From UHGV virus genome UHGV-0042115: a DNA stretch of 37,114 nt; one strand, 5' to 3'. The first letter of the stretch is position 1, and every line of letters starts with the position of its first letter. The notes under the pieces are model-generated. The model was not told the origin of the DNA, searched no databases, and saw nothing but the letters and a program-made list of their open reading frames with translations. The position numbers and the translations under genes are program-made. This DNA comes from a virus. Positions 5,581-12,858 of this stretch are shown here, piece by piece.

Positions 5581-5885
5581 GCCCCGGTGAACGCCTGAAT
5601 GGACTTAATCACATTGCGGAGTTAAGGGCGAAAGTTTTTGGCCTGAATATTGAGTCAGAGCTTGAGCGGTTTATTAAAGATATGCGTGATCCACGGGATA
5701 TCAATAACGAACAAAATAAACGGGCACTGGCAGCCATATTCTTTATGGCAAAAATTCCGGCTGAACGTCATAGCATCAGCATTAATGAGCTGACCACTGA
5801 CGAAAAGCGGGAGTTGATTAAAGCAATGAATCATTTTCGTGCAGTGGTGAGCTTATTTCCCAGACGGCTAACCATGCCGAATTAA
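5544..5885 (+). CDS. Hypothetical early-region protein
   Basis: 113-aa ORF, ATG 5544 preceded by GGGGGAA; overlaps previous ORF end. Confidence 0.4.
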   Translation: MAIEGAAATVPLSPGERLNGLNHIAELRAKVFGLNIESELERFIKDMRDPRDINNEQNKRALAAIFFMAKIPAERHSISINELTTDEKRELIKAMNHFRAVVSLFPRRLTMPN

Positions 5886-6413: not shown

Positions 6414-7267
6414 GCACCATCCTGAAATGGGCGGGTAATAAAACCGCCATTATGTCCGAACTGAAAAAACATCTTCCTGCTGGCCCGCGACTGGTTGAAC
6501 CTTTCGCGGGTTCTTGTGCTGTGATGATGGCGACGGATTACCCCAGCTATCTGGTTGCGGATATTAATCCTGATTTAATCAACCTCTATAAAAAGGTTTC
6601 TGCTGATTGTGAGGCGTTTATATCTCGCGCCAGAGTTTTATTTGAGAACGCAAACAGGGAGGTGGCTTATTACAACATAAAGCAGGAGTTTAATTACTCA
6701 ACTGAAATTACTGATTTCATGAAAGCGGTATATTTCCTGTATCTCAATCGTCACGGTTACCGTGGGTTATGTCGCTATAACAAGAGCGGGCATTTCAACA
6801 TTCCCTACGGTAATTATAAAAATCCGTATTTCCCTGAAAAAGAAATTCGCGCATTTGCAGAGAAAGCCCAGCGAGCAACGTTTATCTGCGCCAGCTTTGA
6901 TGAAACGCTGGCGATGCTGCAGGTGGGGGATGTGGTGTATTGCGATCCGCCTTATGACGGTACGTTTTCCGGTTATCACACTGACGGCTTCACTGAAGAT
7001 GACCAGTATCACCTGGCATCCGTTCTTGAACATCGGTCATCAGAAGGACATCCCGTCATTGTTTCTAACAGTGACACATCCCTGATCCGTTCGCTGTATC
7101 GCAATTTTACTCACCACTACATCAAGGCAAAACGCAGCATCGGTGTGGCAGCTGGTGATAGTAAATCTGCAACAGAAATCATTGCTGTTTCCGGGGCGCG
7201 CTGCTGGGTGGGATTTGATCCTTCGCGTGGCGTAGATAGTTCTGCTGTGTACGAGGTGCGTGTATGA
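6410..7267 (+). CDS. DNA adenine methyltransferase (Dam-like, D12 class)
   Basis: Motifs [53 protein letters not shown]; GGAGG SD before ATG 6410. Confidence 0.88.
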
Positions 7268-9676
7268 GTCATGACGATATGAGCAACTCTAGCGGCTTTA
7301 ACGAGGCCGCTGCATCATTTTCATGGAACGGCCCGAAAAAGGCCATTAACCCTTATCTGGACCCGGCGGAATTTGCGCCGGAGTCTGCACTTTCAAACCT
7401 GATCACTCTGTATGCTGCCGATAACGAGCAGGAACAACTGCGCCGCGAGGCACTGAGTGAGCAGGTCTGGGAGCGTTATTTCTTTAATGAATCCCGTGAT
7501 CCTGTCCAGCGCGAAATGGAGCAGGATAAGCTCATTAGCCGCGCAAAGCTTGCGCATGAGCAGCAGCTTTTTAACCCGGACATGGTCATTCTGGCAGATG
7601 TCAGCGCCCAGCCTACCCACATCAGCAAGCCGCTGATGCAACGTATCGAATACTTCAGCAGCCTGGGCAGGCCAAAGGCTTATTCCCGCTATTTGCGTGA
7701 GACGATTAAGCCATGTCTGGAGCGACTGGATTGTGTACGCGACAGTCAGCTATCCGCTTCTTTCCGTTTTATGGCAAGCCATCAAGGGCTTGAGGGCCTG
7801 CTGATCCTGCCTGAAATGAGTCAGGATCAGGTAAAACGCCTGTCCACCCTGGTAGCTGCGCATATGAGCATGTGCCTTGATGCCGCTTGTGGCGATTTAT
7901 ATGCCACCGATGACGTTAAGCCAGAAGAAATCCGCAAGACATGGGAAAAGGTGGCAGCGGAAACCCTGCGACTGGATGTTATCCCGCCTGCGTTTGAGCA
8001 ACTCCGCCGGAAAAGAAACCGCCGCAAACCCGTGCCCTATGAACTCATACCGGGTTCGCTGGCACGTATGCTTTGCGCCGACTGGTGGTATCGAAAATTG
8101 TGGAAGATGCGTTGCGAATGGCGGGAAGAGCAGTTGCGTGCTGTCTGCCTGGTCAGCAAAAAAGCATCTCCCTATGTCAGCTATGAAGCCGTGACGCATA
8201 AACGTGAGCAGCGCCGTAAGTCGCTGGAGTTTTTCCGTTCTCATGAACTGGTGAACGAAGACGGCGACACGCTGGATATGGAAGATGTGGTAAACGCCAG
8301 CAGCAGCAACCCGGCACATCGCCGCAATGAGATGATGGCCTGTGTTAAAGGTCTGGAGCTTATCGCAGAAATGCGTGGTGACTGCGCCGTTTTCTACACT
8401 ATCACCTGTCCGTCACGTTTCCATTCCACGCTCAACAACGGCAGACCCAACCCGACCTGGACAAATGCGACGGTAAGACAAAGCAGCGATTATCTGGTCG
8501 GCATGTTTGCTGCATTTCGTAAGGCTATGCACAAAGCCGGGTTGCGCTGGTATGGCGTGCGGGTGGCTGAGCCGCACCATGACGGTACTGTGCACTGGCA
8601 TCTCATGTGTTTCATGCGCAAAAAAGACCGCCGCGCCATTACTGCATTGTTGCGTAAGTTTGCCATCCGTGAAGACCGCGAGGAACTGGGTAATAACACT
8701 GGTCCACGCTTTAAATCTGAGCTGATAAACCCACGCAAAGGAACACCGACAAGCTACATCGCGAAATACATCAGTAAGAACATTGACGGGCGTGGTCTGG
8801 CTGGCGAGATCAGCAAGGAAACGGGTAAATCCCTGCGTGATAATGCTGAATACGTTAATGCTTGGGCGTCTCTGCATCGTGTTCAGCAATTCCGCTTCTT
8901 TGGCATTCCGGGGCGTCAGGCTTACCGTGAACTGCGATTGCTGGCTGGTCAGGCGGCAAGGCAACAGGGGACAAAAAGCAGGTGCGCCGGTACTGGATAA
9001 CCCGCGCCTTGATGCCATCCTGGCTGCTGCTGATGCTGGTTGTTTTGCCACCTACATCATGAAGCAGGGCGGCGTACTGGTTCCCCGCAAATATCACCTT
9101 ATCAGAACAGCTTATGAAATTAACGAAGAGCCGACTGCTTATGGCGATCACGGTATTCGTATTTATGGCATCTGGTCACCCATTGTACAGGGCAAGATTT
9201 GCACTCATGCAGTGAAGTGGAAAATGGTTCGTAAGGCCGTTGACGTTCAGGAGGCGGCAGCCGACCAGGGCGCTTGCGCCCCTTGGACTCGTGGCAATAA
9301 CTGTCCCCTTGCTGAAAATTTGAACCAACAAGGGAAAGACAAATCAGCTGATGGGGACTCCAGAACGGATATTACCCGTATGAATGACAAGGAGTTGCAC
9401 GATTACCTGCACAGTATGAGCAAAAAAGAGCGCCGGGAACTGGCTGCAAGGTTACGCCAGGTGAAACCGAAACGGCGTAAAGACTACAAACAGCGAATTA
9501 CGGACCATCAGCGACAGCAGCTCGTCTATGAACTGAAGTCCAGGGGATTTGATGGCAGCGAGAAAGAAGTCGATTTGCTCCTTCGCGGCGGCAGTATTCC
9601 GTCAGGAGCAGGCCTGCGTATCTTCTATCGGAACCAGCGTCTGAAGGAAGATGATAAGTGGCGGAACCTGTATTAA
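7264..9676 (+). pseudogene. A: Replication initiator gpA-like (rolling-circle endonuclease), reading frame changes near 8963-8990
   Basis: First 578 codons end at TAA 8998-9000; the remaining ~230 codons continue in the +1 frame (…[17 protein letters not shown]…) to 9676; junction lies in a G4/A5 homopolymer region. Confidence 0.7.
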
Positions 9677-9768
9677 TTACGCGGGTTAACAATTCGTGCT
9701 CTTAATAATACCAGGCATATCAGGCCGATGAACGTAAAAAAACGTTTTACATCAGTAAGATTATTATA

Positions 9769-9788
9769 TACTGTAAATATAAACAGTG
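9769..9788. promoter_or_regulatory. LexA (SOS) box TACTGTAAATATAAACAGTG
   Basis: Perfect CTGT-N8-ACAG dyad; a degenerate overlapping second site GTG-N10-CAG at 9786-9801. Confidence 0.6.
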
Positions 9789-9828
9789 GTTATGTATACA
9801 GTATTGTTTTGGTGTCATAGGAGGAAAG

Positions 9829-9885
9829 ATGCAGGACTATTTTTTGGAGTCTTTGAAGCTCCAGCGCATTGATTTTTTTTCTTAA
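9829..9885 (+). CDS. 18-codon ORF (MQDYFLESLKLQRIDFFS) with strong SD, directly downstream of the LexA box; possibly the 5' part of a split tum-like gene
   Basis: AGGAGG at 9819-9824; ends inside a T8 run; the next frame continues as a 50-codon ORF to 10018. Confidence 0.25.
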   Translation: MQDYFLESLKLQRIDFFS

Positions 9886-10028
9886 GCTTGTAGCGGCTAG
9901 TGAGTGTAGTGATGAAGAGAAGGGGCTGGCTCTGCAGTGGGTTTCTGAATTGACTGATGAACTCATGGCAAAAATCAGAAGCCACGAATACAACCGCTCA
10001 ATGGATGTCATCAGCTGAGGTGACTTTT

Positions 10029-10262
10029 ATGCGCATTGAAATAATGATCGATAAAGAGCAGAAGATTAGCCAGTCTACCCTGGACGCACTTGAATCCGAG
10101 CTTTACCGCAATCTGCGCCCCCTGTATCCCAAAACGGTAATTCGCATTCGCAAAGGTAGCTCTAACGGTGTGGAACTAACCGGACTGCAACTGGATGAAG
10201 AAAGAAAACAAGTGATGAAAATTATGCAGAAGGTGTGGGAGGACGACAGCTGGCTGCATTAA
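10029..10262 (+). CDS. DinI-family protein
   Basis: 77 aa MRIEIMIDKEQ...LDALESELYRNLRPLYPKTVIRIRKGSSNGVELTG...MQKVWEDDSW resembles E. coli DinI; GAGG SD; track ORF starts earlier at 9957. Confidence 0.75.
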   Translation: MRIEIMIDKEQKISQSTLDALESELYRNLRPLYPKTVIRIRKGSSNGVELTGLQLDEERKQVMKIMQKVWEDDSWLH

Positions 10263-10300: not shown

Positions 10301-10454
10301 TAGTTTGGGCAATGAGTGAAATAAGGCGTAAGGTGGGCGGTTATTTTGATAAGTGATCGTCCGCTTTGTGTCAGAAGCAGAAGTGGGAGTGTCTGAGACT
10401 CTCTAAAAGTTGATGATTCACTTACAAAACCATTTTCCTGATGGATGCTTACAC

Positions 10455-10790
10455 TTACGAATGATCATTCTGTTTAGTCTTCATGAGAAAATCCCGAATC
10501 TTTGCCAAGTTTGAATTTTCGGGGATTGAATCCATGTACGGATCACGCTCAAACACTAATTGCTCAGATTCAACGAAAGCCTGCCACTCTAATGGGTCTA
10601 GCTCAAATCCCATTGCTGTCATATCACTTTCATCTTCCCCCTCGATCCAGTGGACTAAATAAAACAATTCATCATCAGGAGAATCATCCTCACCATCAAC
10701 AATATCAACATCGGTTACAGTGATACGTAGGGTGGGATCGATTTTTGAGACATAAATTCCTAACTGTGGTATAGGGGGAATATTGTTCAT
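10455..10790 (-). CDS. Highly acidic 111-aa hypothetical protein
   Basis: Strong SD (AGGAG, 5-nt spacer) before the minus-strand ATG at 10790; ~25% D/E, few basic residues; no recognisable motif. Confidence 0.6.
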   Translation of the reverse strand: MNNIPPIPQLGIYVSKIDPTLRITVTDVDIVDGEDDSPDDELFYLVHWIEGEDESDMTAMGFELDPLEWQAFVESEQLVFERDPYMDSIPENSNLAKIRDFLMKTKQNDHS

Positions 10791-11038
10791 GGAAACTCCT
10801 TTTATTGGTGTTTGCTATTTGAATAAAAATACGCCAAACAGAGTGTTAACTGTGAATATGGAAAGAATCGTTGTAAGTACCCCGCTTAGGTGTCCCATTC
10901 TATTTTAGAGGTTCTCGTGCATATGGATTATGTTATCTGAAAGTTAACTTCCGCTTCCCGTTCACAGCGAACATTCATCTTTGTAAACCCGTATGATCCG
11001 TTTTTCAAGTGGCCATTCAGATACGGATTTTCACTTCC

Positions 11039-11068
11039 TTGACAGTGCATGACTATGCTGCATGAAAT
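11039..11068 (+). promoter_or_regulatory. Promoter-like element (TTGACA, 18-nt spacer, TGAAAT)
   Basis: Consensus -35 with moderate -10, in the long non-coding region upstream of the PRTase gene. Confidence 0.2.
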
Positions 11069-11102
11069 CGCATGATCGATTGAGGATCGTCTTTGCTCAG
11101 AT

Positions 11103-11124
11103 CCGCCAGAACTGGCGGGCTTTT
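11103..11124 (+). terminator. Intrinsic-terminator-like hairpin (CCGCCA GAAC TGGCGG) followed by GCTTTTG
   Basis: 6-bp GC-rich stem, 4-nt loop, 4-U tract on the plus strand. Confidence 0.35.
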
Positions 11125-11318
11125 GCTCATGTCATGCATGTGCATGAAAACCACTGCATAAAGCGGGCAGGCGTGGCGGGGATACGAGCGCGCGCTAACT
11201 CTTGGCTTTGTTTCATAATCAAAAATGTGATCATTGAGATTATTCTTAAATTTGTGTTTGTCTATGAAATATCATTTCGCTTAACATTGTTTGAGTTAGG
11301 ACTACATGAGAATAAAGA

Positions 11319-11894
11319 ATGCTTTTACCCGTAAGTATTACATCGTGTGGCTTGTATCACCCCTACTGGCATTTGGGAGAGCGCAACCCTCATAGCGATG
11401 AACTATCAAGGCAGATGATGGATTTTAAGGATGAAAATAATCGTAATCATCAAAGGGCCATTAACCGTTTTTCTCGATTAGCTATAGATAAGGTTGGGCG
11501 GTTAGTAATCAGAGGTGGCGGTGGGCGTTTTGTTGAGTCTCCTTTTTCGATAGCAGTTGTCCCGTCTCACACTGAAGGCAGAATTTCACCGGCTTTGATT
11601 GAGGTCGCCGAGCGAATCGTAAATGTTCACCGTCGGGGCATTGTTGATTGCTGTTTGGAAAGAACACGCACTGTTCCTAGCGCACATCGTGAAGGTGGAG
11701 ATCGCTCAATTACTGGTCACATGTCTAGTATCAGAGTTAGGGGTGGTAACCTCATGGGGCGAAATGTGTTACTACTAGATGATGTTAAAACAACAGGCGG
11801 TAGTTTGTCTGCGTGTTTTTATTTACTGGAGTCTGCAGGAGCTGGAGTTATAATGCCATTAGCTCTGCTAGAAACTGCAAACTATGAGGAGTAG
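11319..11894 (+). CDS. Phosphoribosyltransferase (PRTase)-domain protein, ComF-like; candidate toxin/effector
   Basis: 191 aa; C-terminal PRPP-binding motif NVLLLDDVKTTGGSL; ATG directly after an in-frame stop. Confidence 0.7.
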   Translation: MLLPVSITSCGLYHPYWHLGERNPHSDELSRQMMDFKDENNRNHQRAINRFSRLAIDKVGRLVIRGGGGRFVESPFSIAVVPSHTEGRISPALIEVAERIVNVHRRGIVDCCLERTRTVPSAHREGGDRSITGHMSSIRVRGGNLMGRNVLLLDDVKTTGGSLSACFYLLESAGAGVIMPLALLETANYEE

Positions 11895-11898
11895 CAAA

Positions 11899-12858
11899 GT
11901 GCACTCAGAAGAATTAAAAAATACACTTGGATTAGCTATTCAAATCGGGAAGCTAGCATCTGATCAAAGTGTATTAAAATTCTTTGAGCTTATCGATTTT
12001 GATGTTATTCGTGATATACGCGACTTAACTGAGATGGTTAATAGCCACGGGTTTCTAAAAGATAAAATATCTGAGACTGATTTTCTAATAGCGAACGCTG
12101 AATTGGAGAACCACCATGTTAATGGTGTGGAGCTAATACCATATGGGTCTGAATTCTATCCTCTTAGTTTAGCTTTTACTCCTAATCCACCATCAATTCT
12201 CTACATAAAAGGGGATAAAAGTATACTCAAAGAATTGCCGGGTGTCGCAATTGTAGGATCCCGTGATACCTCCCCTGCAGGGGAAGAAATAACGAGGCGG
12301 ATCACTAATCAGATAGTGTCTGCTGGGTATATTGTTGTAAGTGGGTTAGCAATAGGCACTGATGCGAATGCTCACAAGGCAACGTTACAGGCAAAAGGAA
12401 AAACCATTGCTGTCTTGGCGCATGGTCTTGAGGAGGCTAAGCCGAAGCAAAACAGTCGACTTGCTCAAGAGATTCTGGATAAAGGTGGTGCATGGATTTC
12501 TGAGTATCCTATGGGTCGGCCGGCCCAGAAACAATCATTTGTACAAAGAAATCGGATACAAGTTGGATTATCTGCAGGTTCAATTTTAATCGAGGCTGCG
12601 TTAAATAGCGGAACGATAACTCAAGCTGAGTTTGCAAATAAGGCGAAAAGACCAGTGTTTGCGGTTGTACCTCACCTACCTAATAATCCGCTTAATCTTA
12701 ATTGTGAGGGAACAGTTGATTTAGTTAAGAGCAACATGGCTAGAGCGCTAAAAACAAAACGGGATTATGATGATGTGATTATGATCATAAATGAGTCCCG
12801 GGAGTATTTGTTAGAGCTAAAATGGCCAGGGAAACAGAGTACATTAGACTTGATTTAA
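11899..12858 (+). CDS. DprA/Smf-like (Rossmann-fold DNA-processing) protein; alternative ATG start at 11884
   Basis: VAIVGSRDTSPAGEEI...VVSGLAIGTDANAH...TIAVLAHGL...YP...FVQRNRIQVGLS...LIEAALNSGT...PVFAVV matches the DprA core; AGGAG SD 7 nt before GTG 11899, just after the PRTase stop. Confidence 0.8.
   Translation: MHSEELKNTLGLAIQIGKLASDQSVLKFFELIDFDVIRDIRDLTEMVNSHGFLKDKISETDFLIANAELENHHVNGVELIPYGSEFYPLSLAFTPNPPSILYIKGDKSILKELPGVAIVGSRDTSPAGEEITRRITNQIVSAGYIVVSGLAIGTDANAHKATLQAKGKTIAVLAHGLEEAKPKQNSRLAQEILDKGGAWISEYPMGRPAQKQSFVQRNRIQVGLSAGSILIEAALNSGTITQAEFANKAKRPVFAVVPHLPNNPLNLNCEGTVDLVKSNMARALKTKRDYDDVIMIINESREYLLELKWPGKQSTLDLI

Follow-up and report, generated by a model that had tools for sequence, protein, structure and literature searches.

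Introduction

The genes old and tin of phage P2 are annotated as lysogenic-conversion genes and are known to exclude phages. They encode an ABC-ATPase/TOPRIM nuclease and a 253-amino-acid (aa) protein, respectively, and fill the slot between tum and the cohesive-end site (cos) as a self-contained unit of leftward polarity, with its own mRNA start about 150 nucleotides (nt) from cosR, which is annotated in P2 as 19 nt. In phage 186 the same slot is occupied by orf97. Placement of cargo beyond cos is said to have been noted by Dodd and Egan in 1996 for the retrons Ec67 and Ec86. ShosTA, composed of a phosphoribosyltransferase (PRTase) and a DprA-like protein, has been shown to work as a two-gene system (PMC11961720), and the DprA plus PRTase pair that Rousset et al. 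validated represents another variant, likewise of two genes (Rousset et al., 2022; PMC9122126). Among the P2-hotspot arrangements tabulated in the latter study (Table S5A), the protein WP_001059831 is listed only as "hypothetical." Here we analyze the gene for this protein in the virus genome UHGV-0042115, a stretch of 37,114 nt (the window) that represents a P2/186-like prophage of Escherichia coli and in which the gene lies close to ShosTA. We find that it is a member of the family DUF8087 and forms a one-gene cassette of its own, and that this small acidic cargo may have a role in defence or counter-defence.

A Conserved Acidic Gene of the DUF8087 Family

The open reading frame (ORF) at 10455-10790 on the minus strand starts with ATG and encodes 111 aa with an isoelectric point (pI) of 4.05. 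It contains 26 aspartate or glutamate residues against seven lysine or arginine residues, giving a net charge of about -19, or -0.17 per residue. Its pI is the lowest, and its charge per residue about twice that of any other, among the 52 non-overlapping ORFs chosen greedily from the window as the ranking set, so that an initial annotation of this DNA, which had called the product extremely acidic, is borne out. The Shine-Dalgarno sequence AAGGAG, read from the sequence at 10796-10801 (minus strand), lies 5 nt 5′ of the ATG, and AAGGA is kept in this role in the DUF8087 copies of all contexts. It makes a good ribosome-binding site, although its claimed place among the very strongest of the window was overstated, since its duplex energy with the anti-Shine-Dalgarno sequence (-8.2 kcal/mol) ranks about tenth of the 52.

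The ORF is a real gene under purifying selection rather than a chance ORF, because its homologs form 61 clusters, the ratio of non-synonymous to synonymous substitution rates (dN/dS) against eleven diverged copies is 0.12-0.23, and the profile phrog_17127 matches it over its full length (6.6e-70, residues 1-111 of 111). This profile, annotated as of unknown function, is its only match in PHROGs. The 61 clusters were retrieved from 5.8 billion proteins, all belong to Enterobacterales, and all carry the precomputed Pfam label PF26332; the local Pfam copy predates PF26332, hence the null result of our own Pfam scan of the ORF. Scans of Pfam (E <= 1), NCBIfam, and PADLOC returned no family for it, catalytic or other, and the protein lacks catalytic motifs as well as a signal peptide and transmembrane segments. 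It is 99% identical to the cluster of WP_001059831.1, which RefSeq names "DUF8087 domain-containing protein," with L67 in the window where the commoner variant has V67. Homology searches have thus found a family, DUF8087 (PF26332, phrog_17127), of which the window protein is a full-length member showing no difference from the others, while the function of that family is itself given as unknown.

When 1.84 billion representatives were searched exhaustively with a profile, only 34 proteins were returned, including relatives of 68-127 residues that have the first ~80 positions in common. Two residues, P8 and G11, are invariant in the family, whereas Y13, V25, V28, D56, E63, W69, and L78 are nearly invariant, and an acidic/aromatic motif, D56...E63-x-D-P-x-E-W69, is conserved. 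The pI does not exceed 4.64 in 63 of 63 aligned relatives, with identity falling to ~30%, and acidity is therefore a conserved trait. The loop DGEDDSPDDE is variable or missing in relatives and has low confidence in the structural models described below. Literature searches for DUF8087, PF26332, and WP_001059831 returned nothing, and tblastn with the ORF and two distant relatives as queries detected no DUF8087 in 50,697 deposited phage genomes. A plasmid search gave one E. coli record with the ORF and, with a distant member as query, none; the family profile gave no hit among PDB sequences at E <= 10. The protein is already catalogued (in RefSeq, as a Pfam DUF, as a PHROG, and in the table of Rousset et al.), and its gene adds to the orphan cargo of a type of hotspot that is already known.

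A One-Gene Cassette Independent of ShosTA

Comparison of the window with other carriers shows where the mobile unit begins and ends. The left end of homology lies at 10419 in all other contexts, and on the right homology reaches 10911 in an E. coli island copy and 10958 in a copy from an integrative and conjugative element (ICE) of Lonsdalea; from these limits the unit consists of the ORF, a leader of 120-168 nt, and 36 nt after the stop codon. The gene is an independent one-gene cassette of ~540 bp (10419-10958). Its left edge is formed by a fossil of the 5′ end of an integrase gene (10418-10468, minus strand; MIIRKCKHPSGKWFCK followed by a stop), which overlaps the last codons of the ORF in an ATGA-type junction. 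At the right edge (~10949-10966 in the window), one P2-like lineage, represented by L055, carries a tandem GGAAGC array of about six copies (~5830-5870), and the window has only GGGAAGCGGAAG.

The leader (10791-10958, minus strand) is conserved, accompanies the gene into unrelated surroundings, and presumably carries its promoter. By eye, a weak candidate can be drawn from TTCACA (10856-10851) and TATTTT (10831-10826) with a 19-nt spacer; a scan for consensus sigma-70 promoters gave no hit in the leader. We also ruled out that this region forms a riboswitch, a small RNA or another structured 5′ element, as RNA structure is not conserved in it (z -0.09), covariation is negligible (-0.73 kcal/mol), and Rfam has no match. 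LexA control of the ORF was likewise rejected, the only nearby site (10850-10865) having a core mismatch, being degenerate in homologs, and occurring no more often than expected by chance.

Of 5426 complete E. coli genomes, 214 (~4%) carry the ORF region, among them BL21(DE3), E. coli B, E. coli W, and enteropathogenic E. coli (EPEC) E2348/69; 132 of these records are at least 99% identical and the other 82 are ~87% identical. The locus as such is matched by 1315 genomes, and most P2/186-like prophages do not have the ORF. Moreover, the full arrangement of DinI, ORF, ShosTA, and portal gene occurs in only 10 genomes. In six sampled loci the same protein is found beside other cargo. The cargo types recorded next to it are a reverse transcriptase of the retron St85 family with its effector (in BL21(DE3), a retron that we read as the Ec86/Eco1 locus), retron Ec67, GmrSD, a TIGR02391 protein, an Sll1717-type ATPase, and a hypothetical gene, and 27 IMG/VR contigs give the same modular picture of the ORF with varied cargo. 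Among loci with different cargo beyond cos, the window block from 9700 to ~11195 is 98.9-99.7% identical; since the identity to the window of loci combining the acidic gene with other cargo starts at 9700 and stops at ~11195, the conserved block ends at cos. ShosTA, for its part, also occurs without the acidic ORF, whose place is then taken by a PifA-like KAP NTPase or a DUF2971/PDC-S31 protein, and in such loci the match to the window begins at 10943 or 11042. Because the ORF is found beside other cargo and ShosTA is found without the ORF, the ORF is not a ShosTA partner.

The physical layout leads to the same result. A motif match to the 186-type cos core, GGCGTGGCGGGG, lies at 11170-11181 (plus strand), its 19-nt cohesive end probably extending to 11188, and the ShosTA module follows between cos and the portal gene, with ShosT, the PRTase, at 11319-11894 (plus strand; PADLOC ShosT 3.7e-14; phrog_7188) and ShosA, the DprA-like protein, at 11884-12858 (plus strand; PADLOC ShosA 2.8e-70). 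The acidic gene occupies the slot between the tum/DinI operon and cos, where other prophages have the KAP NTPase or the DUF2971/PDC-S31 protein; ShosTA, retrons, GmrSD, and similar cargo are placed between cos and the portal gene. As the acidic gene and ShosTA are on either side of cos, this site divides the A-to-Q cargo hotspot into two sub-slots. The cos motif is found 5′ of the ORF, at a distance that is constant among 23 viral contigs of the solo 186-like type; in the three loci L055-57 it is shorter by 31-49 nt. In position (after the replication and SOS genes and before cosR), in leftward polarity, and in being replaceable by other cargo, the DUF8087 gene corresponds to the old/tin type of cargo, and given that P2 old and tin have the same polarity, the "antisense" orientation is normal for this slot. 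The gene does oppose the DinI-like gene and ShosTA, but not all of its neighbors as had been thought, the portal and terminase genes being on its own strand. Neither Old nor Tin has any sequence or domain similarity to DUF8087, and the exclusion of phages by the P2 pair has no known equivalent for DUF8087.

It could still be argued from physical proximity in the window that the acidic ORF is a third component, an antitoxin or a regulator of ShosTA, and the initial annotation had used its position next to the PRTase/DprA module as an argument for function. We consider this extremely improbable. The two are on opposite strands and are not functionally adjacent, because cos separates them; only 10 genomes show the full arrangement, a small number next to the 214 that have the ORF; six other types of cargo are found with the ORF, and ShosTA is found with the KAP NTPase or DUF2971 protein instead of the ORF; no PADLOC model matches the ORF; and two genes suffice for ShosTA function (PMC11961720). 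The distribution effectively excludes such a role, and the argument from adjacency falls with it. An immunity function, which had also been suggested, is disfavored by the lack of a conserved operon partner. We rejected a type II antitoxin or polymorphic-toxin immunity protein as a candidate, since no tightly linked, co-oriented toxin gene stays with the ORF from one context to another and its neighbors differ in every context.

Origin in the Lysogeny Operon of P2-Like Phages

In P2-like phages of Klebsiella and Enterobacter, the lysogeny operon consists of the repressor gene CI, a gene for a Flk_N-like tail-anchored protein, DUF8087, and the integrase gene int, with gaps of 10 and 11 nt and a 4-nt overlap of DUF8087 onto int. 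Sister phages have a gene for a 288-aa protein or a YebY-like protein directly before int, and this variable one-gene position appears to be a further cargo slot of P2-like phages. The fossil at the left edge of the cassette (~50 nt) reads MIIRKCKHPSGKW... in a frame overlapping the ORF end. In this frame it agrees both with the Klebsiella P2-like integrase at its N-terminus and with the longer integrase fragments, of 71 aa, that are retained in L016 and L055. From the slot in the Klebsiella-type operon and the int fossil together, it follows that DUF8087 belongs to the variable cargo of the CI-int operon and subsequently spread to other sites by copying, taking part of int along. Cargo that is co-transcribed with the prophage repressor is known from the rexAB genes of phage lambda. 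DUF8087 in the Klebsiella P2-like phages likewise sits in the CI-int operon, in a slot varying between phages, but differs from the rexAB type in being a single small soluble protein with no evident sensor/effector pair.

The Flk-like protein was ruled out as a specific partner, being a common core gene of this phage group (>195 clusters) that is also found with other cargo in the slot. In Klebsiella, Enterobacter, and Serratia P2-like phages (L004-L008, L063-L066, and L069-L072) it measures 209-215 aa and is weakly similar to Ant antirepressor families.

A longer form of the unit, made of the acidic gene, an int fragment, and a gene for a 127-aa membrane protein, occurs in the P2-like loci L055-57, the E. 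coli island, Lonsdalea, and Proteus; the window copy is without the 71-aa int fragment and the 127-aa gene. The 127-aa protein has an N-terminal transmembrane helix and matches phrog_26730, of unknown function (L016 and L017, 6538-6921; L020, 6446-6829; L055-57, 6538-6918). It was ruled out as an obligate partner, as the integrase fossil lies in between and the membrane gene is missing in many contexts. Of 27 P2/186-like viral contigs, 26 have the acidic ORF itself intact, the remaining one carrying a copy of the type with the 127-aa membrane gene that has acquired a premature stop. The ORF is also intact in all 24 solo-type viral contigs, and an intact coding sequence is annotated in every sampled complete genome. 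In L051 and L046 the acidic gene is the only cargo between the replication gene gpA and the portal gene.

Relatives in Other Mobile Elements

DUF8087 genes always occupy regions that are accessory or rich in defence genes, be it in a prophage, an island or an ICE. The Morganella copy lies 250 nt 3′ of a full-length Mokosh type II MkoC gene (1497 bits; L009, 2242-5751), and in Proteus PD-T7-1 (1.3e-168; L017, 7265-8626) follows directly after the acidic gene, both copies residing in islands with IrmA, DUF932, and Antirestrict genes. In E. coli strain 1428 the gene adjoins a 1589-aa helicase with TmtA- and MkoA-like regions, in Symbiopectobacterium and Lonsdalea it is carried by DUF2857-type ICEs, and in Xenorhabdus it adjoins a filamentous prophage. 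Solo copies are known from Morganella, Serratia, Symbiopectobacterium, and Xenorhabdus as well, with dN/dS of 0.12-0.20.

A further set of contexts, those of distant relatives, comes from Nitrosospira and metagenomic contigs (L021, L022, L024, and L026), where DUF8087 is part of small integrative elements together with int, an AlpA-type helix-turn-helix (HTH) gene, and a gpA-like rolling-circle replicase. The cargo of these gpA-type elements includes an SRA-HNH nuclease or an Argonaute-associated protein resembling restriction endonucleases, as well as TIR/NLR-like, DEAD-helicase, Gabija-like, and BglII restriction-modification genes, so that the elements look like satellite-like or mobilizable units with a defence hotspot of their own. 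Their DUF8087 copies have a basic N-terminal extension, MGxAKxRGxxxxRxxxA.

Predicted Structure and Comparison with Acidic Mimics

Two AlphaFold2 runs, one from 27 sequences (predicted local distance difference test, pLDDT, 77.5) and one from 63 sequences (pLDDT 83.8; predicted template modeling score, pTM, 0.69), agree on a small five-stranded beta-barrel, putatively SH3-like, with helices as the predicted fold. The modeled strands comprise residues 11-15, 22-31, 43-50, 61-64, and 78-82 and the helices residues 66-76, 84-87, and 94-109, with a flexible acidic loop at residues 31-41. The small barrels of DUF1653 (PDB 3BE3), FeoA, and CarD/Tudor/EF-P domain I can be named as fold comparisons for this model.

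In the initial annotation, small acidic DNA mimics of the Ocr and ArdA types were named as possible parallels. Ocr (T7 gp0.3) and ArdA have small size and very high negative charge in common with the DUF8087 protein, and in Ocr-type negative surface charge the resemblance extends over the whole family. The likeness does not reach the fold, as Ocr is an elongated all-helical dimer imitating bent B-DNA and ArdA has three domains, whereas the DUF8087 model is a putatively SH3-like barrel resembling neither. The ArdA profile does not match the protein either, there being no Pfam family at E <= 1, no PDB sequence match, and no structural match to ArdA among the matches listed. Another parallel is offered by the CarS antirepressor of Myxococcus (PDB 2KSS), an acidic SH3-like protein that mimics operator DNA. 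CarS is thus a precedent for an acidic SH3-like barrel of ~100 residues acting as a DNA-mimicking binder, the type of mechanism that we propose for DUF8087.

Neighboring Features of the Locus

The 3-kb locus around the acidic ORF is 100% identical to that of strain MS 85-1 and 99.7% identical to that of EPEC E2348/69. Converging on the ORF is an SOS operon (9771-10262, plus strand), in which a perfect LexA box, CTGTAAATATAAACAG (9771-9786, plus strand), lies 5′ of a 62-aa ORF (9829-10018) and a DinI-like, tum-type gene recognized by Pfam (10029-10262, plus strand). This operon is the counterpart of the tum operon of phage 186. The 62-aa ORF is frameshifted by one extra T at ~9874-9881 (T8, against T7 in other genomes), which reflects either a sequencing error in the homopolymer or decay of the tum-like operon. 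In the gene for the gpA replication endonuclease (7264-9676), a 2-nt deletion at ~8968 in comparison with intact copies of 2415 bp leaves two ORFs of 578 and 297 aa, and this prophage copy is therefore probably replication-defective.

On the other side of the ORF, a conserved cos-flanking block (10943-11195) is common to all hotspot variants and forms the context of the cassette rather than a part of it. An ORF of 90 aa that spans cos (11062-11334, plus strand) matches phrog_28685, and its C-terminal part varies with the cargo after cos; it is probably not a genuine gene. The ShosT-like PRTase ORF (11319-11894) has no coding-sequence annotation in the RefSeq records of E2348/69, TKEC21-59, and NCTC9041.

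Possible Functions of DUF8087

The reading that we tentatively put forward, and hold with somewhat less than even confidence from the sequence and its comparisons, is that DUF8087 encodes a prophage-expressed, non-enzymatic acidic binding or decoy protein in mobile-element conflict. The gene arose in the repressor-integrase (lysogeny) operon of P2-like phages, in the variable slot directly 5′ of int, and was copied into other mobile elements with a leader of ~120-170 nt and the first codons of int, one of the targets being the old/tin slot of 186-like E. coli prophages. Its product would be a cytoplasmic, strongly acidic small beta-barrel without enzymatic activity, made from the prophage, which might bind and titrate stoichiometrically a positively charged, probably nucleic-acid-binding protein, and might thereby interfere with superinfecting phages or rival elements, a form of lysogenic conversion or exclusion comparable to that of P2 Tin. 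The acidic protein would act alone and not as a component of ShosTA. We infer lysogen expression, the binding or decoy mechanism, the direction toward defence, and the nature of the target because the known occupants of the old/tin and CI-int slots are expressed in the lysogen, defence genes are found nearly everywhere around the gene, the protein is non-enzymatic, and both its acidity and the acidic/aromatic patch are conserved. The absence from the 50,697 deposited phage genomes was also counted in favor. Several observations weigh on the other side: the consensus scan left the leader without a sigma-70 promoter and the spacer of the candidate drawn by eye is 19 nt long; the window copy derives from the longer unit by truncation, and one copy of that unit has the premature stop; selection on the solo form is not demonstrable in E. 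coli, because the 132 solo records are at least 99% identical; and the absence from phage records may reflect sampling. Moreover, by analogy with Ocr and anti-CRISPR proteins (Acr), a lone acidic protein without an effector domain is at least as typical of counter-defence inhibitors as of exclusion factors, and prophages do express such inhibitors in lysogeny.

This last consideration leads to the idea raised in the initial annotation, namely that the protein mimics nucleic acid or binds an immune protein of the host or of a rival (a restriction enzyme, CRISPR-Cas or another system) and protects the prophage or an incoming element. The protein is small, non-enzymatic, and acidic throughout the family, with flexible acidic loops; its gene, like many with anti-defence functions, is spread over prophages, ICEs, islands, and small gpA-type elements, has an Antirestrict (KlcA/ArdB-type) gene within a few kb in the Morganella and Proteus islands, and lies nearest to the right cohesive end, reading inward. 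We nevertheless regard this as possible but rather unlikely, since no similarity in sequence or fold to Ocr, ArdA or any solved inhibitor was found, the supplements of two anti-CRISPR/anti-defence discovery papers contain no match, no aca-like HTH gene is adjacent, no copy exists in the deposited phage genomes, the slots otherwise hold defence genes, and the gene lies in the CI-int lysogeny operon rather than in an early lytic operon. A gene inactive on its own, carried along neutrally as what is left of a larger module (one with the 127-aa membrane protein, or the lysogeny operon), seems improbable to us by a clear step more. It would account for the loss from the window copy of the int fragment and membrane gene present in L055-57, for near-identical solo copies with no visible selection, for the lack of a strong promoter, and for the decay of the host prophage seen in the frameshifts of gpA and of the 62-aa ORF, but hardly for an ORF that is intact in 24 of 24 solo-type viral contigs and every sampled complete genome, that persists as solo copies in Morganella, Serratia, Symbiopectobacterium, and Xenorhabdus with dN/dS of 0.12-0.20, and that is the sole cargo between gpA and the portal gene in L051 and L046. 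Slightly less probable again is an accessory factor of lysogeny or integration that modulates the integrase, the repressor, the antirepressor (Tum) or the gpA-type replication of its own element. The overlap with int in the Klebsiella P2-like phages is of the kind seen in translational coupling, the int fossil is retained in every cassette copy, the gene of distant betaproteobacterial elements lies beside int or diverges from an AlpA-gpA operon, and that of the window converges on the tum/DinI operon; yet unrelated genes (for the 288-aa and YebY-like proteins) take the slot before int in sister phages, most P2/186-like prophages do without the gene (214 genomes with it against 1315 locus matches), no functional int is near it in islands and in the old/tin slot, and DNA binding is unlikely for an acidic protein.

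Conclusion

Of all prophage defence hotspots, the one harboring this gene has been studied best, yet the gene itself has been listed only as "hypothetical" or as a DUF. One would naturally assign it to ShosTA or the retrons; our analysis corrects this view by placing it across cos from both, as a cassette that is autonomous, and delimits a minimal unit of 540 bp, suited to direct cloning or deletion. One may go further and see in DUF8087 a new family of stand-alone acidic SH3-like decoys that mimic nucleic acid or the acidic tail of a single-stranded-DNA-binding protein (SSB) and neutralize a protein that binds DNA or RNA, whether it comes from a rival phage or from host immunity, a proposal that we consider doubtful in this specific form. 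Such a family would be carried by P2/186-like prophages (those of BL21(DE3), E. coli B and W, and EPEC E2348/69 included), ICEs, islands, and small gpA-type elements resembling defence-carrying satellites. Nothing in our analysis shows an unusual mechanism. If the gene turned out to be without phenotype, it would be an ordinary orphan moron; if it acts as an exclusion factor or an immune inhibitor, DUF8087 would represent a new family of very small proteins in the conflict between mobile elements.

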